A DNA stretch of 64,000 nt from a virus (taxonomy: Duplodnaviria; Caudoviricetes), in IMG/VR virus record IMGVR_UViG_3300037400_004242. One strand, written 5' to 3'. Below, piece after piece: positions 1 through 63,998 of the stretch. The notes under the pieces are model-generated. The model was given only the letters and a program-made list of their open reading frames with translations, was not told where the DNA came from and did no database searches. A program made the position numbers and the translations under genes. Position 1 is the stretch's first letter. Each line of letters opens with the position of its first letter.

Positions 1-1
1 G

Positions 2-1558
2 ATTCATACATATGTTTATGCACAAGATTTTATTAATGAACATGAAAGTGAGTTTGATTATGATAAAAAAAGTGCCGCTTATGCAACATTACGTTATTTA
101 AAACATCGTATTGTTGAATTGAATGGCGGTGAGCCATATGAACTCACAGATGAAGATAATGTTGGATTGTTAGGCGAAAAATCATATATAGTTAGGGACC
201 CATATGATAATCTTACAGGTCGTTCTGGAAGTAGTGAAGAATTGGCTAATAAAATATCTAATCCAACAGGTTATACTGGATATATTTCTGCAAAAGAAGC
301 TAAGGAAGGTATTGGAAATACTGCTGAAGAAGATGAAGAAATAGCTAAAAGTGCAGGTTTTTATGGCGCGGCTATGGGAAATTATGAAGATAGTTTAACG
401 AAACAATTAATTAATGATAATAATCCAGAATATGTAGAAAATAAGCCAGTTCAGCAAAATTCAGCTTCACAATCTAGTTCTTCTTCGCAAGTAGATGGAG
501 ATTATGGAGCATATGCAAGTATGGTAGAACAAGCTAAAATGATTTCTCAATTAACTGGTTTACCAACAGATGTAATATTTGCGCAATTAGCATTTGAAAC
601 AGGTCAAAATCCATCTGATATGGCATATTCTGATAAAATTCATAATTATGGTGGTACTATTGTTGATATGGGGCATGGAAAAAATGATAGTGGCTTTGGT
701 ATTTATGTAAACAATCAAGAGGGCGCAGAAGCATATGTAAAAGGTACAGTCCCAGTTAGAGAACAATTACCACAATTAAGGGAAGCAATCGCACAAGGCG
801 ATTTGAAAAAATATGTACATTTATTAAAATATGGTATGGAAGAGTCTGGTAAAGGAAATTATCAATATTTTACTGGCGATGAAAATGAATATTTAAATGG
901 TATAATGTCTTATTTATCATTAGCTCATAAATTTGGGTTAAATGGAGTTACACCTAATGGTACATATGATTTTTCAGCAGTAATACAACGATTACAGAAT
1001 TTAAAGCCAAAAACATTAAAAGAACAATGGGATGAAAATATAAGTAATTATAAAACATCTGTTGGTAATGGAAAAACTATAAAAGGCGCATATACACATA
1101 ATGGATTATATCTAGATGCTTCTTTATCTGCTCCTTCTATTGTAGAAGAAAATCAAAAATTAAGAGAAAAATATGCAAATGGTTTATATAATGATGATAT
1201 TACTCCATCTACTGAAAATATTATGACACCTGAAAAATTGGCTGAATTTGAAAAGAAAAAAATGTATTTATCATTTAAAGCTGTTCAAGAAGAAACAAAA
1301 ATGATGATAGAAGCAGAAAGAAAAAAATCACAACAGAAGGATGTTATTTTTAGGCGAACATTGGAAGAAGCAAAAGCTAAAACAGAAAAAGAATTAAACA
1401 AAGAAGAAAAAGATGATAGAGATACAATTGTTTTGAATGTTTTAGCAAAATTAAAAGATGGCCTTAGTTCAAAACAAATTAATCAAATATATCAAGAAGT
1501 AAATAAGATTTTAACGGATAATGGTTTTGAAGCCGATAGTTATATCACACAAACATAA
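2..1558 (+). CDS. C-terminal part of a large tail protein (probable tape measure) with a GH73/lysozyme-like muralytic domain; 5'-truncated by the window
   Basis: The frame is open from position 2 to the listed 119 start. Motifs AQLAFETG..IHNYGG..YFTGD resemble glucosaminidase-family motifs. The gene lies directly before baseplate genes. Confidence 0.55.
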   Translation: MHTYVYAQDFINEHESEFDYDKKSAAYATLRYLKHRIVELNGGEPYELTDEDNVGLLGEKSYIVRDPYDNLTGRSGSSEELANKISNPTGYTGYISAKEAKEGIGNTAEEDEEIAKSAGFYGAAMGNYEDSLTKQLINDNNPEYVENKPVQQNSASQSSSSSQVDGDYGAYASMVEQAKMISQLTGLPTDVIFAQLAFETGQNPSDMAYSDKIHNYGGTIVDMGHGKNDSGFGIYVNNQEGAEAYVKGTVPVREQLPQLREAIAQGDLKKYVHLLKYGMEESGKGNYQYFTGDENEYLNGIMSYLSLAHKFGLNGVTPNGTYDFSAVIQRLQNLKPKTLKEQWDENISNYKTSVGNGKTIKGAYTHNGLYLDASLSAPSIVEENQKLREKYANGLYNDDITPSTENIMTPEKLAEFEKKKMYLSFKAVQEETKMMIEAERKKSQQKDVIFRRTLEEAKAKTEKELNKEEKDDRDTIVLNVLAKLKDGLSSKQINQIYQEVNKILTDNGFEADSYITQT

Positions 1559-47884: not shown

Positions 47885-50413
47885 TTAAAATACTGTTGTA
47901 AATGTTGATGTATCATGTGCTACTTGTAAATTCATAAATTCACCATCATTTCTACAATTTTTAAACGAATTTAAATCTATATTATGTGGAATATTTACAA
48001 TTTTACATTCAGTAATATTACTATAATCAAACATGCTAATTGGGACTCCGGATAATCCTGAACCGTCTAATATTAAAGTAGTATTTATATTGCGTATTTC
48101 TGTACCATAAAACATATTTTCTGCTATTTTTAAAATAAAATGTTCATTTGTTGGATTTTTCATATCAAAGCCAATTTTATCTTGTATAGATGACATTTTT
48201 TCAATTTTACACCATGCAAACATCCCTGATGAATTTATAATTTTTGAATATGATAAATCTGGCAAATTAGAAAATCTATTATGCATAGATGCATAATAAG
48301 AAGTATCATTTTTTGGATGATAATACCCAAACATTTCTGTTGCATTAATCCCATTAACACTACTACAATCTATTGTGCCATTAAATGTAATTGGTTTTGA
48401 TGATGCATTTTCTCCACATCTAGTAAACATATGATATGCTGAAATAATATCACCAACAACTTTTAATCCATCTAATGTAATGGAAGTTAAACATTGATTT
48501 ACAAACATATTTGATAAATTATTAACAGTTCCAAATGTAAAATCAGATGTGATTGTATCTAATTCTGCAATACCAAAACTTCCTTTTAAACTATAATTAT
48601 CACCACTAATATTAATTTTATTATCAACAGGAGTACCATCAATAGTAACATCAGTACCTACACTATATTTTGAAAAATATCGTTTATATTTATCATCTAC
48701 ATTTGTGAAATTGACTGATGTTATTCCTGAACCTTTAAATGTATTCATAAAAGGAAATTCATTTAGAGAATAACTGTCTGAATCTATCGTAATAGTTTCT
48801 ATGTTTGCTTTTGTTATATCTTCGATATTTGAGCAATCAATATTATATGGGAATGCACCAACAAGATTTTTGCAATTTGAAAAAGCATATCTCATTTGTT
48901 TTATTTTATTGATGTTATTATTAGTGAATTTTGGCATTCCTTTTAGTGTCATTGACGTACAATTGTTAAATGCAATTGCCATATCTTCCACGTCACTATT
49001 TATTGTAATTGAACTAAAATCAGATATTTGAGAAGAACCATCAAATAATTGTGTCATATTTTTTACTTTAGGTAAATTAATTTTAGGAATAGAAACTAAT
49101 TTTGATGAGAAAGCAAATAAACCTGATACATCTTCTGCATATTGTAAATCAATGGTTGATGTTCCTAATGATGTTATATTGTCCAATTCTAATGCATAAT
49201 AATATGTTTTTGATTTTGTATTCCATATATAATCAGGAATTGTAGTAACTTTAGTTCCATATAAGAAATGTTTCATATTAGTTATATTTGTTAAATCTAA
49301 TTTGTCAGGCAATTTAGATAAATTTTTGCAACCATTAAACATTTCTTCTGCGGTTGTTAATTTAGATGTATCTAATTTATCAGGAACTTCTGTCATTGTC
49401 TGATAACGAGCAGGATATAAATCTTGCATTTTATATCTATCATCTGTTAATTCAATTGCTTCAATAACAACTTCATCTAAGAAATTAACTATATGATAAG
49501 TATTCGTTGTTGTTCCATCAGTAGAACGTCCTGTAACATCAATTAAATCTTTTTCGTTTCCTTTAAATTTTGTAGGAACATTAATTAATGTAAATTTCCA
49601 TCCACCAGCAGAATCAAGACCTAATTCTTTTACATTAATACATGGTGTTTTACCAAAAGTATCAATGTTTGTGCAGTCTATTGTCAGATTCCTAAGATTA
49701 TTTTGAACGGAAAAATAATATAATGCATCTCCTGCACTCATATCTTGATTTTTAAAATTAAATCCTAATAACTTTTTCATATTTAAACAACCATTAAAGG
49801 GTAAATTATTCATAATATTAGCTTTTGGTTCTGCAAAATTGATAAAATGTATTTCTTCTAAATTACCGCAACCTTGTGCAGAAAAAGATGTTAAATTTTG
49901 TCCATTAATAATAGGGATATGATATGCACCACAATGTTTAAACGAAATGCTTTCTCCCTTAAAACCAAACATACCGTTAATTGATTTTAATTCAGTACAA
50001 TCATCAAAAAATCCATCTGCATTAACTACATTACTCCAATCGGCAAATGCAATTTCCTGTGGTAATTCTGTCATTTTATCAAAACTATCAGGATAATTTT
50101 GTTTCATATAATTAGAACTGTCAGGTGGTAAAGATAAACGACCGTCTGAAGCCTGATAAGATGCTATTGTTATACGTTTACCACTTTTTGTTTTAAACCC
50201 TGTATATGTAACTTTATCATATTTTGGGTTATAACTATTTGGACGATTATAAGTTTTCTTTGTTTTTATAACATTTCCACTAGCATCAAAATAACTTGCT
50301 GCTACTGCATATAAATTATCTCCAATTCTAATAACAAAACGAGGATATACAGATACATCATTTACATCTAATACTTCAAAAGTATCTCCACCAATATTTA
50401 TTGTTTTTGACAT
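47885..50413 (-). CDS. DUF285/BspA-like leucine-rich repeat protein, possibly virion-associated
   Basis: Repeated LDTS..T.A..MF.GC..L units. Confidence 0.65.
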   Translation of the reverse strand: MSKTINIGGDTFEVLDVNDVSVYPRFVIRIGDNLYAVAASYFDASGNVIKTKKTYNRPNSYNPKYDKVTYTGFKTKSGKRITIASYQASDGRLSLPPDSSNYMKQNYPDSFDKMTELPQEIAFADWSNVVNADGFFDDCTELKSINGMFGFKGESISFKHCGAYHIPIINGQNLTSFSAQGCGNLEEIHFINFAEPKANIMNNLPFNGCLNMKKLLGFNFKNQDMSAGDALYYFSVQNNLRNLTIDCTNIDTFGKTPCINVKELGLDSAGGWKFTLINVPTKFKGNEKDLIDVTGRSTDGTTTNTYHIVNFLDEVVIEAIELTDDRYKMQDLYPARYQTMTEVPDKLDTSKLTTAEEMFNGCKNLSKLPDKLDLTNITNMKHFLYGTKVTTIPDYIWNTKSKTYYYALELDNITSLGTSTIDLQYAEDVSGLFAFSSKLVSIPKINLPKVKNMTQLFDGSSQISDFSSITINSDVEDMAIAFNNCTSMTLKGMPKFTNNNINKIKQMRYAFSNCKNLVGAFPYNIDCSNIEDITKANIETITIDSDSYSLNEFPFMNTFKGSGITSVNFTNVDDKYKRYFSKYSVGTDVTIDGTPVDNKINISGDNYSLKGSFGIAELDTITSDFTFGTVNNLSNMFVNQCLTSITLDGLKVVGDIISAYHMFTRCGENASSKPITFNGTIDCSSVNGINATEMFGYYHPKNDTSYYASMHNRFSNLPDLSYSKIINSSGMFAWCKIEKMSSIQDKIGFDMKNPTNEHFILKIAENMFYGTEIRNINTTLILDGSGLSGVPISMFDYSNITECKIVNIPHNIDLNSFKNCRNDGEFMNLQVAHDTSTFTTVF

Positions 50414-50456: not shown

Positions 50457-51059
50457 TTAACTAGCAGATGAAGAATCTTCTACTTTAAGAACATTAGCAA
50501 AATCTGTAATACCGATAGGAATCCATGTACCTGGTGTTCCACTCTTTGTACAAATCCAACCAATATTAGAGCCTGTTGTTGGAGCTAATTTAATAATCAT
50601 GTCACCTGTAGTATAAGCACCTGTTGTTGGTAAACTATCCATACGTAACATTTTTACAGTAGAATCGTTTTCTAATAATACTCCTGTATAATATTTTGCA
50701 GTTATATGGTCTGCTAAATCTTTATCAATATCAAATCCGCCACTAGCGTTATCAAATGTCCATGTTAATGTTTTAGCTGGACGTGCAACTGTAAAAGCAT
50801 CATCTTCTTCATAAATAATACCATTAATATTTAATTCTACTTTTTGTGCATTTGGTTCATTAGTCAATGTAAAATTAACTTCACTTGCTGTAAGTTTAGA
50901 TAAATCAATTTTGTCATAAACAGGGAAAACAGTATTTTGAATGGCAGTAATTCGGCTTTCAATATTACCACTATCATTAATAAGTTTATTAACTTGAGCA
51001 ATTAAATTTTGTCCACCTTCAATTTGGCGTAAATTAATTAATTTCATATGTTTATTCAC
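50457..51059 (-). CDS. Putative tail fibre/decoration protein
   Basis: C-terminal PTTGAYTTGD..GWICTKSGTPGTW motif as seen at tailspike ends. Confidence 0.5.
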   Translation of the reverse strand: MNKHMKLINLRQIEGGQNLIAQVNKLINDSGNIESRITAIQNTVFPVYDKIDLSKLTASEVNFTLTNEPNAQKVELNINGIIYEEDDAFTVARPAKTLTWTFDNASGGFDIDKDLADHITAKYYTGVLLENDSTVKMLRMDSLPTTGAYTTGDMIIKLAPTTGSNIGWICTKSGTPGTWIPIGITDFANVLKVEDSSSAS

Positions 51060-55963: not shown

Positions 55964-58900
55964 TTATAACAAGTATACATACATTTCCTTCTCAGGATGA
56001 CGTTCGATAAACATTGTTATCTTTTCACTATCGTTCCATACAACTGTATTTGGAATCAATAATTTGATATTTGTTCCATGTTCATCACATGGGTATTTAA
56101 TAATATCAAGTTTAATATCTAAGTCATTATAGTGTTGGTCTGTAATAACTTCAAACTTGATGTTGCAAATATCTCTTTGTACTTTATATGGATTGATTTC
56201 AAAATTAATCAGTTTGTCACTATGGTCAGGAAGTGTAACTTCAAAGTTGACAGGCAATCTACTCTGCGGATTAACCTCGAACGTTATAGGAATATCAAAC
56301 CATTCGCAATTTGGTGGTGTATGCCAATACGTAACAGTTACTGATGGTTTTGCCATTTCTCCTAGTTTCGTTTGTAAGGACGAGAATGTTAACAAATCAT
56401 TATTACGTTTATTATGTTGCTCAATGACTAATAAATAACTACGTTGCGTTGATGGTAATAATTCAAAGTCTTTGAGGTCATCCGTAATATCAATTTTAAT
56501 TCTGCCTAATTTATTAGGAACAGTAAATTGCGTAATTAGTTTACCAATATTTTGCTTACCAATCGTGTTATAATTTGCGAAAGTTTCAACCCAATTATTG
56601 TCAATGGAATAAACTTTAACAATATCTCCTGTTTTAATTCCTGAAATGACATTCAAGTTCAAAATTGCTTTTTGAACTGTCTGATAGCCATAATACTGTG
56701 CGTCTCTACGTTTCATATCAATATTCAAGTCTTTATAATCGAATCCGATAATCGTCTTGAATATATCATATTTCTTCGTATTCGCGACAACAATCTTTTG
56801 CTTCAAACCATAGTTCATATATCTAGCAAAATTATAACCATAAGTATCTTTCAATGCTTTGATATTTTCTTTTGCAAGTTGTGGTTTTGCAAGTTTTGCA
56901 TGAGCAAGAATCTTAGGAGCTGTCTTTTCCGTTGAAACATAGAATGTAATATTACATTCACGCTTAACAATTGGAATTGTCATATGAATATCAAGTTTAT
57001 TAGAAACATGATTAATTACATCAGAATTTGTAATTAAATGTCCGATAGCATTGACATACATAGTAATAGGAATAGAAGACCTTTGTTCATATACAACATA
57101 GAAACTAATCTTTTTCTCAGATGGCTTCATATGTGTAATATCTGCATAAGTTGTTACATTCGCAATATCATGTACAACTATGAAGTTAATGTTACTACCT
57201 CTAGATTTTACATTTTGTTTTACAGTAAATTTAATCGGAACTTTGCTCTTATCATTGTAATAACCAAATTGTTCAACAACAGAATGTAACAAGATATATT
57301 TACGTATAACATTCATTGTGATTGGAATTTGTGTCTTTTGAGCTAAAGATATAACATCAAATGTAATATTACGTTTTTCATCATCAACATGATATTGATG
57401 TAAACTAATATCACCTTGTGTAATCAATTGTGGATTACGACTATAAATAAATGTAATTGGTAGTTTGGATGTATCCTTATTACGAACGGCAAATGTAATC
57501 GTTCTATCTGTATCTTTTGTTCCTTGCGTCATAAATGATGCATAAGAAATTAATTCAGGTGTACGATGAATTACCATTGTAATAGGAATTACATTTTTAG
57601 CTTTGTTAATAATACTAACAGTAATAGGTAATGTATGTTCGTCATTACGATAATGTGTATCTGCAACTGTTTCTAATTGAACTTTATTGAAGATATACAT
57701 GTAAATTGGCAATCTTGTATTACTTGCACGATTTACAACAGAGAAATTAATTGTTCTAGTATCTTCAGTTTTTGTCATTCCTTGATTAAAGGAAATTTCT
57801 GATTTAAAAGAATTCTGATACTTATCAATTATTAATGTAATTGGAATTTGTGCTTTTGTTTTATTTGCAATTTGAAGAGAAATATCTATTCCTTTTTCAT
57901 CTTTTAGAACTTCAGGAATGTCTAATTTAATTGGAATTTGTGTTCGCGTATTAAGATATTCTTCTAACTTTTTCTTGTTATCGTCATTAACACCGATAAC
58001 ATACATATGAATATCTTTACGTTCATCCGTAACTTTACCAATAATAAATTTGATATTTGTAATATCAAGTTTAACAGTACGTTTTACAATGAAATTAATG
58101 TTCCATTTTTCTTCAACGACACGTTGAATATTAATTTTAATTGGTAAATCAGATTTATCTTTGCGTTGTACAACAAGATTTACTTTCTTGTCATTAAAGT
58201 AAACAACAATAAAATTAATATTTTCTCTAAATTCATCATAACGTTTTACAATAAAGTTAATATATTCTCTATCTTCCTCTTTGCGTTTAACAATGAAATG
58301 AATCTTTGTACCGTTTTCTTTTTTCGGAACAGTAAAAATAATATGGCATTTATCTTCTTTGTTCGGAATAGATAATTTAATAGGAATCTTACTTGTTTTA
58401 TATACAAAGAAATCAATATTTATTCCTTTATTTTTTACAGTACGTTTTATGGTAAACGTGATATGACGCATATCTGCTGTTTGTTGTGCAATTACAAATT
58501 TGATTGGACGTTTATCATCATTGAGAGGATTAACATCAAATTTAATCAAATTACTTGTACTGTATCCAATATCGTAAGTAACGCCATCTTCAAATTGCGA
58601 CACATTAATATGATTAATGGAAATAATTTTCTTATCTTCAATCGTAAAAGTTAATTTTTTCCATTTATCATTAATTAAGTAATAGTAATCATAATCTCCA
58701 TCAGGAACGTCTGAATTGATGATATATTTCTTTTTTTGTTCAGCAGTACCACCATTAATACTCTGCATTATATCTAAAGGATAATCATCAGGAAATTTTT
58801 TATCGTTCTTAATGGTTTTCCAATATCCTGGAGGTGCGAACATATAGGCTTCTGTTGCTTTATCAGGTGTGGAATCTTCATATGGTACAACAGTAGCCGT

Positions 58901-59101
58901 TGTTCCGTTCATAGTACAGGTTAAAAATTGAATATTAGTTGAATTTTCATCCAACATTAACCTATATCCTGCATATTGCAAAGAAAGTGCTTCTTTATAA
59001 CGCTTTATTAAGCTATTATAATCAGCACTTTCTCTAATTTCTGTTAGCGCAATATAAGCATTAGAACGTAACTGTTCGAGTATTAGATACGAATTTTTTT
59101 T
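55964..59101 (-). CDS. C-terminal part of a frameshifted virion-type protein with many I-x-F-x-V beta repeats and a DNRLRE/CBM96-like domain
   Basis: The frame is open back to the A8 run and there is no SD before TTG 58981. NNWVETFANYN..FSS motif. Confidence 0.65.
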   Translation of the reverse strand, partial: KKNSYLILEQLRSNAYIALTEIRESADYNSLIKRYKEALSLQYAGYRLMLDENSTNIQFLTCTMNGTTATVVPYEDSTPDKATEAYMFAPPGYWKTIKNDKKFPDDYPLDIMQSINGGTAEQKKKYIINSDVPDGDYDYYYLINDKWKKLTFTIEDKKIISINHINVSQFEDGVTYDIGYSTSNLIKFDVNPLNDDKRPIKFVIAQQTADMRHITFTIKRTVKNKGINIDFFVYKTSKIPIKLSIPNKEDKCHIIFTVPKKENGTKIHFIVKRKEEDREYINFIVKRYDEFRENINFIVVYFNDKKVNLVVQRKDKSDLPIKINIQRVVEEKWNINFIVKRTVKLDITNIKFIIGKVTDERKDIHMYVIGVNDDNKKKLEEYLNTRTQIPIKLDIPEVLKDEKGIDISLQIANKTKAQIPITLIIDKYQNSFKSEISFNQGMTKTEDTRTINFSVVNRASNTRLPIYMYIFNKVQLETVADTHYRNDEHTLPITVSIINKAKNVIPITMVIHRTPELISYASFMTQGTKDTDRTITFAVRNKDTSKLPITFIYSRNPQLITQGDISLHQYHVDDEKRNITFDVISLAQKTQIPITMNVIRKYILLHSVVEQFGYYNDKSKVPIKFTVKQNVKSRGSNINFIVVHDIANVTTYADITHMKPSEKKISFYVVYEQRSSIPITMYVNAIGHLITNSDVINHVSNKLDIHMTIPIVKRECNITFYVSTEKTAPKILAHAKLAKPQLAKENIKALKDTYGYNFARYMNYGLKQKIVVANTKKYDIFKTIIGFDYKDLNIDMKRRDAQYYGYQTVQKAILNLNVISGIKTGDIVKVYSIDNNWVETFANYNTIGKQNIGKLITQFTVPNKLGRIKIDITDDLKDFELLPSTQRSYLLVIEQHNKRNNDLLTFSSLQTKLGEMAKPSVTVTYWHTPPNCEWFDIPITFEVNPQSRLPVNFEVTLPDHSDKLINFEINPYKVQRDICNIKFEVITDQHYNDLDIKLDIIKYPCDEHGTNIKLLIPNTVVWNDSEKITMFIERHPEKEMYVYLL

Positions 59102-60969
59102 CTGATACTATTCAAGAAGTCGATAGCGGCTTTTTCATAAGCGGAAACTTGAGATTCAGCATAAGAATCGTTTGTAATGATTCCATTATCAAACGTTTCC
59201 TTTGCTTTATTAAGTTCTGCTAAAGCATCACTTAATTTTTTAACATCATCATTATATTTGTCTGTATCGGAATATTCTTCCTTGGAACTTACGCTATCTG
59301 AAACTTCTTTTGCCTTTTTAATAGCGGCTTTGAATGTATCAATATTCTCCTGTGTAGTATTACCAGGTTTCGTTCCAACTTGAACTGCATCAACATGTGT
59401 CTGATAATCGGAGATAGCTTTTTCGATAGCAGTTTTGTCAACCTTGTAATCTTCGATTGCATCTTTAAAGTTTTGAATAGCGGTTGTTAATTCTTCAACT
59501 GCAACTTTAACTTCAGAAGATTGAGCTTCATCATTGTTATTAACAACTTTTGCTTTGTCAATAGCAGATGTGAACGCATCTTTTGCTTCTTGTTTAACTG
59601 TACCTACATCTTCGCCAACAACATGTTCACTATTTAATTTTTCTGCACTTGTAATAAGTTCATTAAGAGTTGTTTTGTCAACTTCTTTGCCTGGTACTGT
59701 ATATACAGTATCTTTATCTTTGATTTTTTCTGTTGGAATTGCAAAATCATCAACAGCAGATACTAAATTATCCTTAACGGTAATGACAGTATGATAATAA
59801 CTGCCATCATTCATTTCATAAATGTAATCATAATCTCCATCTGCCATTGATTCTGTTCCAAAGAGCAAACTTGTCTGGTCAGGAGTTAAATCAGAAACAG
59901 GCATTTCATCATATTGCCCTGCATTATAATAGAACGCTCTCTTAGCAGAACCAACTTTAATTTTATCTGTAAATACAATACGGAATGGAACATTACCTGA
60001 AATATGCTTTACCTTATATAAATCTAAATGATTATTTTTAGATTTATATAAATAATAAAGTTTATATGCTTCTTTCTGTTTTAAATAAGCCGCATCATAA
60101 CGAGATTGTAATGAAGTTTTCTTATCTCCATCTTCAAGTGCGCTAATAGCTTCAGAAGCAGTAATACGACTTGCTTCTAAAGCATCTTTTTGCTTTGCAA
60201 TTTCATCTAAATCGCTAGAAGCAATTTCTTGTACTAAATCCTCGTAGCGTGTTAATGCTTCTTCGGCAGTAATAACTTTTACTGCAAATGTTGAAGAGTT
60301 TTCGATAGAATTTTTTGCATCAGCAACATGATATGTGAGTTTATAATCTCCATGCGCATCATCTTTTACATTAAATTCAATCGTAACTGTATCATGCGCA
60401 CCGTCTAAACGAGAAACATTAGATAAAATATCAAAAGAATTTTCAGCTAACGGTACATCTTTTACAATATCTTCTTCTGTAAATGTCTGATTATGTACTG
60501 TTACTTTAATAGAATCAAATACTGTATTAAATGCAACAGCACTATCATCATTAGCAGTTAATTTTAATGAAGATGTAATATTAGAAGCTGTAAACTTATT
60601 GAAATATTCTTCCAATACCAACTGAGCCTTTTCAGAACCTTGTAAGAAAACAGCTTTATTTGTGTCTAATTCTGTAAAAGTAATCGTTGGAGGTTCCGTT
60701 GGTGTTGGTTCAGAACCTGTTCCTTTGGTATCATCATCTTTTGGGGTTTCAGTACTTGAGCCTGTACCTGTGGAATCTGAATCACTTGTAGTATCAGAAC
60801 CTGTAGTACCTGAACCACCTGTTGTATCAGAAGAACCTGTTCCTGAACCATTGCCAGAGCCATCTGATGGAGTGCTTGTGCTTGAGCCATCATTTGGTAA
60901 TGCTACTGATTCATCACCATCTGCAAAGCGTTGAAGATTAAAAATAAAATTCTTTTCTTCATTGGACAT
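59083..60969 (-). CDS. N-terminal part of the same protein: FNLQRF/A leader, G/S/T linker, Ig-like and FIVAR-like repeats
   Basis: ATG 60969 follows SD AGGAG. Two FIVAR-like units of the form VDKT.L..I..A..VG...G. Confidence 0.7.
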   Translation of the reverse strand: MSNEEKNFIFNLQRFADGDESVALPNDGSSTSTPSDGSGNGSGTGSSDTTGGSGTTGSDTTSDSDSTGTGSSTETPKDDDTKGTGSEPTPTEPPTITFTELDTNKAVFLQGSEKAQLVLEEYFNKFTASNITSSLKLTANDDSAVAFNTVFDSIKVTVHNQTFTEEDIVKDVPLAENSFDILSNVSRLDGAHDTVTIEFNVKDDAHGDYKLTYHVADAKNSIENSSTFAVKVITAEEALTRYEDLVQEIASSDLDEIAKQKDALEASRITASEAISALEDGDKKTSLQSRYDAAYLKQKEAYKLYYLYKSKNNHLDLYKVKHISGNVPFRIVFTDKIKVGSAKRAFYYNAGQYDEMPVSDLTPDQTSLLFGTESMADGDYDYIYEMNDGSYYHTVITVKDNLVSAVDDFAIPTEKIKDKDTVYTVPGKEVDKTTLNELITSAEKLNSEHVVGEDVGTVKQEAKDAFTSAIDKAKVVNNNDEAQSSEVKVAVEELTTAIQNFKDAIEDYKVDKTAIEKAISDYQTHVDAVQVGTKPGNTTQENIDTFKAAIKKAKEVSDSVSSKEEYSDTDKYNDDVKKLSDALAELNKAKETFDNGIITNDSYAESQVSAYEKAAIDFLNSIRKKIRI

Positions 60970-61244
60970 AAAAATCACTCTCCTAAATTGACATTGTATT
61001 GTTATTCTAGGATATAATTTAATTTACAAGAGGAAATCATTGCATTGTTTTCTTCTTATGTAAATTAAAAAATTATAAAATGCAATTATGAATTTATAAA
61101 TATCTTTCAAATAACAAAATTGATTGCACTAACAGATATTTTTTACATTCATAATGCTAGAATACTGAGTTTTTTACTCAATAAAAAAATAAGAGATTGA
61201 AGCAAATCAATCTCTCACATAACAATATAGCATATTTTATAACA

Positions 61245-63998
61245 TTATTTCTCTTTCGTAGCAAAATCAAGAGTAAATGTTTTATCTTTATTTGTAGCAT
61301 TGGTACTTAGCCAAGCCTGATGTCCATCATAGTATTCATTTGTGCGGAAACGACGTTTAAATTCAAGATTTCCTGCTTCGACCATTTCTTGAACAGTTTG
61401 ACCATAATATGTCTTGAAGTATGTATCAAGCCACAAAATAGAGAAGTGTTCAAATGTATCGCTAGGAAGTTTAAATCCGTTAAATGCTTCTGTTTGTTCT
61501 AATTCAGTTAATGGATTCTTCATGAAGTCTTCTTCAGAAATACGTCCATTTAACCATGTATAAGCATTTTTACCTGAAACATATAAGCTCTTTCCTGTCA
61601 ATGACATTTTATCAGGAACATTCTTAATTGTTATATCAAATAATCCTTCACCATCATAAGATTCAATATTTTTGATGCTTGCATAATCTTTAGAATATGT
61701 TGTAGCAGGAATATCCATCTTAATTAATGGAGTATCAATTGGCGTTCCTGTTGCAAGAACAACGAATTTTTTATGACGATAAGAAAGCACGTCTTGTGTA
61801 GATTCGATACGTACATAGAATTTGAACGTATCATTATTTTCTAATACATATGGAACTTTTATAGCATTTGTATATGTTGTTTTTCCATCATCAGATTTGT
61901 AAGTAGCTTTTGAAGCAACAAAGTCTGTTGGAGAATCAGGAGAAGTAAAGGACAACATAATCTTTGCTTTATCTTCTTGTGTATCAGCATCTGGGAAGAT
62001 AATAATATTATCCATAGCCAAACCTGTTTTATTCTCCAATACAACTGGATAAGCATCAGAATTAATACCGCCAATAACCGTACCAAAATCAAGTGTTTGC
62101 AATACATCGCCTGTATCTGTTGAATAATAGAAGTTATTTTCATCTTTAAACAACAAGGATTTGTATTCACCGACAATACTAAATTTCGTGAATGTAATAG
62201 TCTTTAATTCATCTTGTACACGAATCTCAATTTCATTTGGTAATCCAATTAATACATCATTTGTATTCCATGTATAGTTCAATTCAAATGTATTATTTTT
62301 ATAATCTGTTGGATTGAGCCATTCACTCCATTCTCCTTCTTTAACAGGAGCTTTTTGTGTACCATTGATATAAATTTGGAAACGGAATTTGCGATTCATA
62401 CTATGAGACATGAGAATATCTGCATAGAATTGATTATGAGATTTAATTTTAATTTCAGGAGAACCTTGAATTAACGTAAAGTTTATTATTTTTTCAGATT
62501 TTACTCCACGAGTATCCATTGTCTCAATTTTTAAATAGTTTGCGCCATTTGAGAATTTATACAATGGGAATTTAAAATTAAATTTCTCGTTATTTTTAGC
62601 TCTTAAATATGCACCATCGGAATTTGGATATAATTGTGTATATTCAGGACTAACTTGGTTTTTAGAAAGAACACGATAACGTACATCATCATTTTCTTTA
62701 TCTACAAAGACACCTTTGACATATACATAATCATGGTCAGTTGTATTAACAATTTCCGTGGCTTCAGGACCATTATTATCTTCAAATTCAATATCTAAAT
62801 CATGAATATGGAACGTAGAGTTAAATGCATCAGAAGAAATTGCACAAGCAATTTTAATTTTAGATTTATAATCTGTTGGTAATGCATTCATAACAGTACG
62901 AGAAGCCAAATCGTTAATTGTAACGCCTTGGTCATAAACATCAGATAACTGTACTCCTTTCCAATTGTTATCGGAAGGATTGTAAGTTAACCAACTTTTA
63001 CCATTGTTTACAGAAATAACATAGCGAGATTTATTTGTTCCGTAAGCATCTACATGAACACCACGATTTTCTTGTCCCATTGTGTTATACAACGTATATG
63101 TTATATTTGTACGGAGACTTTGTTTCTCTATACGTGTGTCATATTTTGTCTTGCCATTTAAAACAAAATCTTTATTTGGTTTATTAATTTCCGTATTAAC
63201 TTTTAAATCTACACCCTTAATTTCATCTTCTTTGGAATCTGTAATGGTAATATAACGATTATCATTAAATGCACTCGTAGAAGTTTTTATATTTGAAGCG
63301 TTGTTATAAGTTAATGAATATGTATAATTCGTAGAATTTGTTTGACGTTTATCATAGTTAATGTTTGCAATAATTGCATCATCATATTTTGATTCTTTTT
63401 CAATTTCTGTATTTACAATAATTGGGAACTCTGTAACTTCTTTTTTTTCTAATTTTGTATAATTATAATTACAAGAAAGTTTGTTATAGTCTCCTTCAGA
63501 TAAACGCAAGGTATCTTTCTGTTTGATTGTTGTAATTGTTATATCCATTGTATCAGAAGTTTTATCTTTTAAAATCTTTACAGATGGATACATGTTTTTT
63601 GCTTTTGTACCTTCTAACAAAACATCTAATTTAATATTATGTTTATCTTCTTGCAATACTTTACGTAATGCTTGAATTGTAATATTAGAAACGTCTGTTA
63701 AACCATTATCTACATAATAATCATATGTGATTGGGTCAGGAACATCAGTACATGGAACAAAAGTATTTGTTATTGTATCATATTTATTTAATGTTCCGTT
63801 AATATCAAATAATGTATAATAATGGTTTTGGAAAATTAATGTTGGGTAGCGATTATCAACAAATTTAAATACATATTGTTCATGTGGATAAAAATTATCT
63901 TTAACTGAATCTACCATAAAACTTGTAAAATTGCTAGGATTATAGAAATAGTCTTTACTAACGCCTTTTGCATGTTCATCAGGATAATATTCAGGAAT
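61245..63998 (-). CDS. Large beta-rich virion structural protein, 5'-truncated by the window edge
   Basis: The frame is open from 63917 to the window end. RYVISVNNGKSW and Ig-like D.END segments. Confidence 0.55.
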   Translation of the reverse strand: MPEYYPDEHAKGVSKDYFYNPSNFTSFMVDSVKDNFYPHEQYVFKFVDNRYPTLIFQNHYYTLFDINGTLNKYDTITNTFVPCTDVPDPITYDYYVDNGLTDVSNITIQALRKVLQEDKHNIKLDVLLEGTKAKNMYPSVKILKDKTSDTMDITITTIKQKDTLRLSEGDYNKLSCNYNYTKLEKKEVTEFPIIVNTEIEKESKYDDAIIANINYDKRQTNSTNYTYSLTYNNASNIKTSTSAFNDNRYITITDSKEDEIKGVDLKVNTEINKPNKDFVLNGKTKYDTRIEKQSLRTNITYTLYNTMGQENRGVHVDAYGTNKSRYVISVNNGKSWLTYNPSDNNWKGVQLSDVYDQGVTINDLASRTVMNALPTDYKSKIKIACAISSDAFNSTFHIHDLDIEFEDNNGPEATEIVNTTDHDYVYVKGVFVDKENDDVRYRVLSKNQVSPEYTQLYPNSDGAYLRAKNNEKFNFKFPLYKFSNGANYLKIETMDTRGVKSEKIINFTLIQGSPEIKIKSHNQFYADILMSHSMNRKFRFQIYINGTQKAPVKEGEWSEWLNPTDYKNNTFELNYTWNTNDVLIGLPNEIEIRVQDELKTITFTKFSIVGEYKSLLFKDENNFYYSTDTGDVLQTLDFGTVIGGINSDAYPVVLENKTGLAMDNIIIFPDADTQEDKAKIMLSFTSPDSPTDFVASKATYKSDDGKTTYTNAIKVPYVLENNDTFKFYVRIESTQDVLSYRHKKFVVLATGTPIDTPLIKMDIPATTYSKDYASIKNIESYDGEGLFDITIKNVPDKMSLTGKSLYVSGKNAYTWLNGRISEEDFMKNPLTELEQTEAFNGFKLPSDTFEHFSILWLDTYFKTYYGQTVQEMVEAGNLEFKRRFRTNEYYDGHQAWLSTNATNKDKTFTLDFATKEK

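Follow-up and report, generated by a model that had tools for sequence, protein, structure and literature searches.

Two long open reading frames (ORFs) that follow each other in different frames raise the question of whether they are two genes or one gene whose product is made across a change of frame. Such a pair lies on the minus strand of the window analysed here, by which we mean the whole 64,000-nucleotide (nt) stretch of IMG/VR record IMGVR_UViG_3300037400_004242; the upstream frame is called ORF-A and the downstream one ORF-B below. In public records they are called as two hypothetical proteins, with ORF-B begun at an arbitrary internal codon. It is likely (probability of about 0.85) that ORF-A and ORF-B are one gene that makes two proteins through programmed -1 recoding at a run of eight adenines (A8). 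A reading of the window's sequence alone (hereafter the original prediction) had proposed one gene of ~1670 amino acids (aa) with short and long isoforms made by a -1 shift at this run, and the comparative evidence for it is strong.

According to the mechanism that we propose, most translation would end at the TAA at 59083 and give a 628-aa protein with immunoglobulin-like (Ig-like) domains, FIVAR-like bundles and a single helix-plus-beta module. In a fraction of cases, reading would slip back by one base within A_AAA_AAA and a further 1043 codons would be read, giving 1668 aa. This long form would complete another copy of that module, spanning the junction, and would then add ~560 residues of beta-strand repeats, a domain resembling carbohydrate-binding module (CBM) family 96 and a conserved C-terminal region. 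The long form is presumably the minor species.

Layout of the locus

The program-made ORF list gives ORF-A as 59083..60978 (GTG start, 631 aa) and ORF-B as 55964..58981. Because the listed GTG sits in the ribosome-binding site of ORF-A and an ATG at 60969 follows AGGAGAG, the true start is taken to be ATG 60969 and the product to be 628 aa long, which agrees with the upstream end given in the original prediction. At its 3' end ORF-A reads AGA AAA AAA ATT CGT ATC TAA. The first A of the run is the third position of a codon, which places the heptamer A_AAA_AAA in the X_XXY_YYZ phase, here and in all related loci compared. The -1 frame is open for 1047 codons, from 59107 to its stop. It shares only about eight codons with the 0 frame, and A8 lies in this shared part. 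The features that define the site are as follows:

59083..60969, minus strand: ORF-A, 0 frame, 628 aa followed by TAA, predicted short isoform (ORF list, AGGAGAG and structure model)
59094..59101, minus strand: A8 run, predicted shift site (T8 on the plus strand), identical in 15/15 loci
59101..59095, minus strand: slippery heptamer A_AAA_AAA, in X_XXY_YYZ phase
59108..59110, minus strand: -1-frame TAG, upstream limit of the shift window, two codons before A8 (TAR elsewhere; abuts the run in lineage L015)
59083..59085, minus strand: 0-frame TAA, downstream limit of the shift window, 9 nt past A8, the end of 106/106 ORF-A homologues
58982..59095, minus strand: bridging segment, 38 -1-frame codons without ATG, GTG or TTG, conserved as protein
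55964..59107, minus strand: ORF-B, open -1 frame with its stop at 55964-55966; the long isoform would read 1043 aa of it from AAT 59095

A shift on A8 would produce the junction ...IRKK-NSYLILEQLR... and a protein of 625 + 1043 = 1668 residues. The position of the run, the heptamer, the end of ORF-A, a -1 frame that stays open from A8 into the downstream ORF (to 55964) and a TTG start at 58981 that lacks a Shine-Dalgarno (SD) sequence had all been described in the original prediction, and each was borne out by the sequence.

Among the 36 A7/A8 runs located in long ORFs of the window, the -1 frame continues for 1045 codons after this A8 and for at most 42 codons after any other. Chance is excluded because only one of the 36 runs has a long -1 continuation.

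Conservation of the site in related loci

When an alignment of ORF-B homologues (947-1016 aa, 31-37% identity in a protein search) was used as query, three IMG/VR loci and nine loci from JGI metagenomes were retrieved, and 15 loci in total were compared. Only this alignment query retrieved related loci; single-protein queries gave no match. All 15 loci contain AG-A8-T, a 0-frame TAA 9 nt further on, a -1-frame stop that precedes the run by 0-2 codons, and an open -1 ORF of ~1000 codons. They represent five lineages, whose ORF-B products are 33-58% identical in pairwise comparison. Conservation of the shift site in homologous phages, which the original prediction had named as a check on itself, holds for every locus. 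In L015 the run follows immediately on the -1-frame TAG, and the shift window is four codons long, against ~8 at the site described above. This implies that the shift is confined to the run or the following 9 nt.

The end of ORF-A is equally constant. All 106 ORF-A homologues, down to 31% identity, end with [IV][RK]KKI[SR]I (...KKIxI). Three homologues (among P0009-P0114) end with IKKKISI instead of IRKKISI, and their run would be A10 if Lys is encoded by AAA.

A8 without an indel was also present in an independent DNA assembly of 2025 from another study (depth 50), in two near-identical JGI contigs and in a 2-kb contig from an RNA library (X15) that crosses the site. In a second RNA run (X16) the contigs break around A8, leaving 59044-59125 uncovered, and in a third (X17) the contig stops 30 nt beyond it; depths were 4-13. 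The sequencing runs were examined as contigs, in which a minority A9 is not visible. Neither a fused protein of ~1670 aa nor an A9 allele was found in searches covering that length or among more than 100 assembled variants. A search for longer, fused forms yielded only an unrelated FIVAR-bearing glycosyl hydrolase, and a looser DNA pattern for the junction yielded three known contigs and nine chance matches without long ORFs. Among cultured phages, no match to either ORF was detected by megablast and tblastn against 50,697 GenBank phage records. In the virus record closest to the window (G001), a fragment of 41.7 kb, the ORF-A/ORF-B region is missing.

These observations bear on two explanations that place the event in the DNA, a sequencing indel and phase variation, for both of which the original prediction had allowed. 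With the first we group an assembly indel and a decaying pseudogene. Errors are common in homopolymers, and one contig alone would be insufficient to exclude them. However, the same A8 and the same layout were found in five lineages of 33-58% identity, in different samples and studies and in independent assemblies, by which an indel is refuted, and a pseudogene was rejected because ORF-B is open for ~1000 codons in every locus. The chance that either applies is negligible.

The other is phase variation, in which replication slippage would toggle the locus between an A8 (split) and an A9 (fused) allele. Homopolymer tracts are well known as contingency loci, and this protein resembles those that contact the host or the environment. 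On the other hand, A8 was the only allele seen, in 15 of 15 loci and in every independent assembly; the 106 ORF-A homologues share the same stop, and the variants mentioned above include no fused form. Phase variation is thus unsupported by the data, and we consider it very improbable.

Coding evidence across the junction

Could ORF-B instead be a second gene with a start of its own? In the first 96 nt past the run, the -1 frame contains no ATG, GTG or TTG in any lineage, and 32-36 start-free codons follow A8. Only the -1 frame is open in this stretch, the other frames holding stops, and the bridging peptide is conserved from the first -1-frame codon on. Across six sequences, the variable sites in the 64 nt past the run fall on 13 of 22 third positions, 7 of 21 first positions and 5 of 21 second positions of the -1 frame. 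The ratio of synonymous to non-synonymous codon differences is 32/82 in this frame, and 5/101 and 12/88 in the other two. As judged from sequence comparison, the gap between ORF-A and ORF-B is coding.

The bridge had also been reported to align with an internal segment of ORF-A. This similarity is weak by BLASTP, where it comprises the DGDYDY stretch alone (E 0.013), and clear by profile-profile comparison with hhalign, where ORF-A ~263-412 matches ORF-B from residue 7 (probability 95.9%, E 5e-9, 145 columns). With the two frames joined at the run, the alignment spans 167 columns (E 7.5e-9) and takes in 19 residues before the junction. These alignments suggest that the last part of ORF-A encodes the first helix of the repeat, and the -1 frame the remainder. 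The structure models are in agreement, ORF-A closing with a helix and ORF-B opening with a helical hairpin packed on a beta domain. The bridge covers helix 1 of the first module of ORF-B and a portion of its helix 2, and initiation at ATG 58957 would delete almost the entire helical hairpin of ORF-B. In a search of representative proteins, the helix-plus-beta module was found in-frame within other proteins (residues 177-350, 167-337 and 989-1163).

The last of these belongs to P0128, a distant relative of 1351 aa that terminates with ...LAKKKI. Here a lysine run may likewise serve as a shift site, in a gene of different architecture.

The view that the locus consists of two separate genes, with ORF-B made only from its own start and no change of frame, would rely on ATG 58957 or TTG 58981 in the window and on an ATG at +108 nt in relatives. 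Gene callers begin the homologues at such codons, AGGA precedes ATG 58957, and the window lineage, having lost the ATG at +108, retains the later start codons. The local signals are an AGGA of only 4 nt at a spacing of 9 nt for ATG 58957 and no SD for TTG 58981. However, the 32-48 start-free codons before these starts are conserved as protein with a signature of synonymous substitution, they form the helical half of a module found in-frame in ORF-A and in other proteins, and in every lineage the -1 frame opens 0-2 codons from the run. Two independent genes are therefore quite improbable.

Termination followed by reinitiation would also deliver ORF-B as a separate polypeptide, with ribosomes restarting after UAA in the -1 frame on a non-canonical codon such as the AUA in UAAUA. 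The tight overlap of the stop with the -1 frame and the invariant sequence surrounding it speak for such a process. However, there is no AUG, GUG or UUG within 96 nt, and initiation at AUA is very rare in bacteria. Upstream (5') of the stop, lineages differ by CAG/CAA, a change that is synonymous in the -1 frame only, which suggests that the -1 frame is already read before the stop. Moreover, two polypeptides would split the module that aligns across the junction. We regard this process as scarcely credible here, and programmed -1 recoding remains the best explanation for how ORF-B is reached.

Sequence constraint and the route of the proposed shift

Nucleotide conservation, compared over 520 nt among four lineages, peaks at the junction: 86-90% of positions are invariant in 21-nt windows at the junction versus ~33% in the background. 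Two invariant blocks are present, AGAAAAAAAAT and TATCTAATACTCGA (59089-59076), and the second deserves a line of its own:

59076..59089, minus strand: invariant 14-nt block TATCTAATACTCGA, starting 5 nt past the heptamer; conservation peak

Only the first 8 nt of this block are constrained by both frames. The 14 nt are invariant in all five lineages, including three third positions of rare-looking Leu/Ile codons (CTA ATA CTC).

The heptamer phase, the overlapping -1 ORF, the conserved layout and the coding signature are all those of a frameshift site. Such sites usually, although not universally, carry a stimulator as well, which may be a downstream hairpin or pseudoknot at a distance of 5-9 nt or an SD-like element upstream, and none was found. 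Several points weigh against programmed -1 recoding. RNAalifold detected no covariation around the junction, and folds of 74-79 nt on either side were no more stable than shuffled sequences (z from -0.4 to +1.1). In duplex searches with TATCTAATACTCGA, the top-ranking partners were weak and differently placed in different lineages, so that no conserved partner emerged, and no SD-like stimulator was found near the run, upstream or downstream. The heptamer A_AAA_AAA shifts far less readily in E. coli than A_AAA_AAG does (PMC5009743), from which it follows that an unaided ribosomal shift may be inefficient. The conservation of A8 arises in part because R-K-K-I residues are conserved in an AT-rich genome, and since the five lineages share one ancestor, phase and run length amount to one observation. 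The trans-frame product is deduced from comparison, the available runs being contigs that are blind to minor A9 transcripts. It is also possible that a shortened ORF-B is produced by its own initiation, at the ATG at +108 nt in most lineages or at ATG 58957 with its AGGA. An independent start had been named in the original prediction as grounds for refuting it; as an additional event it would not account for a bridge that is conserved ahead of all start codons.

If the shift occurs, by which route would it take place? Slippage of the ribosome with tandem tRNA-Lys appears somewhat more likely than slippage of RNA polymerase, in view of the phase of the run, its length of 8 rather than 9 and the presence of an invariant element at the usual distance of a stimulator. 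Both routes yield the same protein.

In the transcriptional route, which competes with the ribosomal one only, the polymerase would stutter on T8 and add one A, and the A9 mRNA would encode the same 1668 aa. Bacterial and viral polymerases are reported to slip on A/T runs (PMC5009743); a homopolymer is what is used here, and this route needs no RNA structure, in line with the lack of any detected. A8/T8 runs are strongly avoided in the window, being about five-fold under-represented (13 observed versus 62 +/- 12 in dinucleotide shuffles), and their scarcity fits such runs being error-prone in this system. The homologues ending with IKKKISI, in which the run would be A10 on the condition given above, point in the same direction. 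However, efficient transcriptional slippage by bacterial RNA polymerase has been reported at runs of 9 (PMC5009743), one more than here, and run length shows no upward drift in the five lineages seen as DNA. The contig from RNA library X15 has A8, and thus A9 is not the majority form. Nine other A8 runs on the sense strand are located in ordinary genes of the window (at least 8 of the other 12 A8/T8 runs, if long ORFs are counted), where frequent slippage would be costly. Polymerase slippage is therefore possible, and the less likely of the two routes.

A further thought concerns the ribosomal route. The 14-nt block at 59076-59089 might be an unstructured stimulator that acts through its sequence and is of an undescribed kind, for example by contact with the ribosome or rRNA. 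In addition, the site lies inside a duplicated protein module, so that the short form would be left with an orphan helix and the fold would be completed only after the shift. This is speculative and unlikely to be right as a whole. If true, it would represent a structure-independent recoding switch of gag-pol scale, conserved in a clade of jumbo phages.

Domain architecture of the two proposed products

The structure model of ORF-A (mean pLDDT, the predicted local distance difference test score, of 80) suggests the following parts, all within 59083..60969 on the minus strand:

ORF-A 1-89, minus strand: disordered N-terminus and G/S/T linker (model)
ORF-A 95-233, minus strand: two Ig-like beta-sandwiches (model)
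ORF-A 235-424, minus strand: three-helix unit and beta domain (model)
ORF-A after 424, minus strand: two FIVAR-like helical bundles, then the last helix, 600-627, which reaches the stop (model)

The FIVAR assignment is based on Pfam PF07554, for which ORF-A 434-504 scores 27.1 bits against a cut-off of 29.2; precomputed PF07554 matches are present on several ORF-A homologues, and the model has three-helix bundles at 434-504. Fold searches with ORF-A gave only generic matches of the Ig-like/beta-sandwich, adhesin, pilin and cohesin types and no specific function. PHROGs contained no informative family for either ORF-A or ORF-B.

For ORF-B, numbered from the first codon of the open -1 frame, four regions were distinguished:

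58568..59107, minus strand: ORF-B 1-180, helical hairpin and beta domain, paralogous to ORF-A ~238-412 (hhalign, model)
56888..58564, minus strand: ORF-B 182-740, short beta-strand repeats with a motif like [LI]P[IT]x[LFM]x[IV] (all strands, pLDDT ~35)
56309..56887, minus strand: ORF-B 741-933, CBM96-like carbohydrate-binding beta-sandwich, predicted (Foldseek, Pfam on homologues, pLDDT ~80)
55967..56308, minus strand: ORF-B 934-1047, further beta repeats and the conserved C-terminus YPCDE ... KE.YVY (invariant columns; low-confidence model)

In the ORF-B model, the hairpin helices (4-25 and 28-55) are packed on the beta domain (56-180) with pLDDT 70-87. The repeat region (~560 residues) was not folded by AlphaFold, and the protein atlas held no usable match for it. 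For ORF-B 741-933, Foldseek returned 8wab (E 2.6e-8, TMt 0.78) and 7vbo (E 2e-6, TMt 0.64). The Pfam family CBM96 (PF24517) matches three homologues (P0003, P0005 and P0008) at 31.3-40 bits, with a cut-off of 26; the window's own ORF-B has no PF24517 match at E <= 0.01, and its region aligns column for column with these homologues. The structural and family matches support the prediction that this is a CBM96-like carbohydrate-binding domain. The statement in the original prediction that only the long form has the beta-repeat region and a carbohydrate-binding-like domain is thus supported, by Pfam on homologues and by Foldseek. Taken as a whole, the product presumably forms a fibre or decoration that is exposed on the phage particle and resembles an adhesin.

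In one locus (L008), a strain 98% identical to the window, AGA is replaced by TGA at L008:6848-6850 (codon 948 of the -1 frame). This removes ~98 C-terminal residues of ORF-B and leaves the remainder open, and may be a natural truncation or a consensus error.

Expression signals and genomic context

Three signals were located upstream of or at the beginning of ORF-A:

60978..60984, minus strand: strong SD AGGAGAG of ORF-A (sequence)
61189..61218, minus strand: terminator-like hairpin with a T-run after the gene upstream of ORF-A (12-pair stem, T-tail)
61072..61100, minus strand: sigma-70-like promoter candidate TTTATA-17-TATAAT (consensus match only)

An SD of at least 4 nt is present in 29 of the 39 genes of the window. 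The hairpin marks the beginning of a separate transcription unit for ORF-A and ORF-B, and no terminator was found between the two. The promoter candidate is weak, such sites not being enriched over shuffles, and no copy of the late-promoter motif TAT-N8-TAGA was found upstream of ORF-A.

The N-terminus of ORF-A carries a leader of 15 residues (60919-60969, minus strand), which ends with FNLQRF, is followed by ADGDES and occurs in the window lineage only. Most ORF-A relatives (P0010-P0112) begin directly with M-ADTDET, and a cut between F and A would yield a mature N-terminus of the kind seen in them.

Gyrase A and B, ClpX, RecJ-like proteins and a sigma factor are encoded near ORF-A and ORF-B, and the phage is a large (jumbo) one. 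Sequence of the window was observed in cattle and sheep gut runs from 14 studies. Synteny is kept between lineages, with 51% identity for the gene upstream of ORF-A and 45% for the downstream sigma factor. ORF-B evolves faster than both neighbours (33-42% identity among the window, L002, L003 and L015 lineages), which may be seen as the behaviour that contact proteins often show.

The gene upstream (61245-63998, minus strand) contains an RCC1-like propeller region (phrog_16766, E 4e-18). The 51% identity is to its counterpart in L002, which is 1153 aa long and occupies the equivalent position, so that ~260 N-terminal residues of the upstream gene lie beyond the window. The C-terminal part of a 200-aa protein (50457-51059, minus strand) matches tail-fibre PHROGs (phrog_23059, E 4e-8), and an 842-aa protein (47885-50413, minus strand) contains DUF285/BspA-type repeats. 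The tail-fibre and BspA-type matches imply that other surface-type genes are present nearby on the same strand.

Comparison with known systems

The heptamer itself resembles A_AAA_AAG of E. coli dnaX and of IS3-family insertion sequences (IS911, IS150), in that it is an all-lysine heptamer suited to tandem -1 slippage of tRNA-Lys. It differs from them in having A rather than G at position Z. The dnaX and insertion-sequence sites use an upstream SD-like element and/or a downstream hairpin, neither of which was found here. With Thermus thermophilus dnaX (A9), paramyxovirus P and ebolavirus GP editing (PMC5009743), the locus shares an A run at a frame junction where one added A would give the fusion; unlike those sites, it has a run of 8 and not of 9 or more, and no upstream hairpin was found. 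A conserved site with no detectable RNA structure would offer a clean test case for ribosomal versus transcriptional slippage at A8.

The way in which the site was recognised recalls lambda G/GT (Xu, Hendrix and Duda 2004; PMC5009743), a conserved -1 shift at a fixed place between overlapping ORFs that was also found by comparative genomics. The proteins are unrelated, however: the products here are large, modular and adhesin-like, with no chaperone features or tape-measure neighbour. Recognising the shift would correct the annotation across a clade of rumen jumbo phages sampled in at least 14 studies. As for the extension, ORF-B 741-933 is predicted to have the same beta-sandwich fold as the alginate-binding CBM96 (7vbo; PMC9971899) and a chondroitin-sulfate-binding CBM (8wab), and differs from these in being part of a phage protein without a catalytic module.

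The nearest parallels are phage structural proteins that receive a C-terminal extension through -1 frameshifting, such as T7 10A/10B, the T3 capsid protein and those of Lactobacillus phage A2 and Listeria phages A118/A500 (PMC5009743). As in those phages, the two products would share an N-terminal body, the -1 shift would occur near the end of the 0 frame, the extension would add surface-type domains (Ig-like in the known cases) and the short form would presumably be the major one. The differences lie in what is added and where: a repeat region and a CBM96-like module in an uncultured jumbo phage, reached at an all-A run with no stimulatory structure detected. Extensions of the T7 type range from tens of residues to about a hundred, whereas the 1043 residues proposed here exceed the body itself. 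One locus would thereby provide a surface-type protein with or without a long carbohydrate-binding arm, a simple control of their ratio on the particle, by a shift that works like the known cases and an extension far larger than the usual phage examples.

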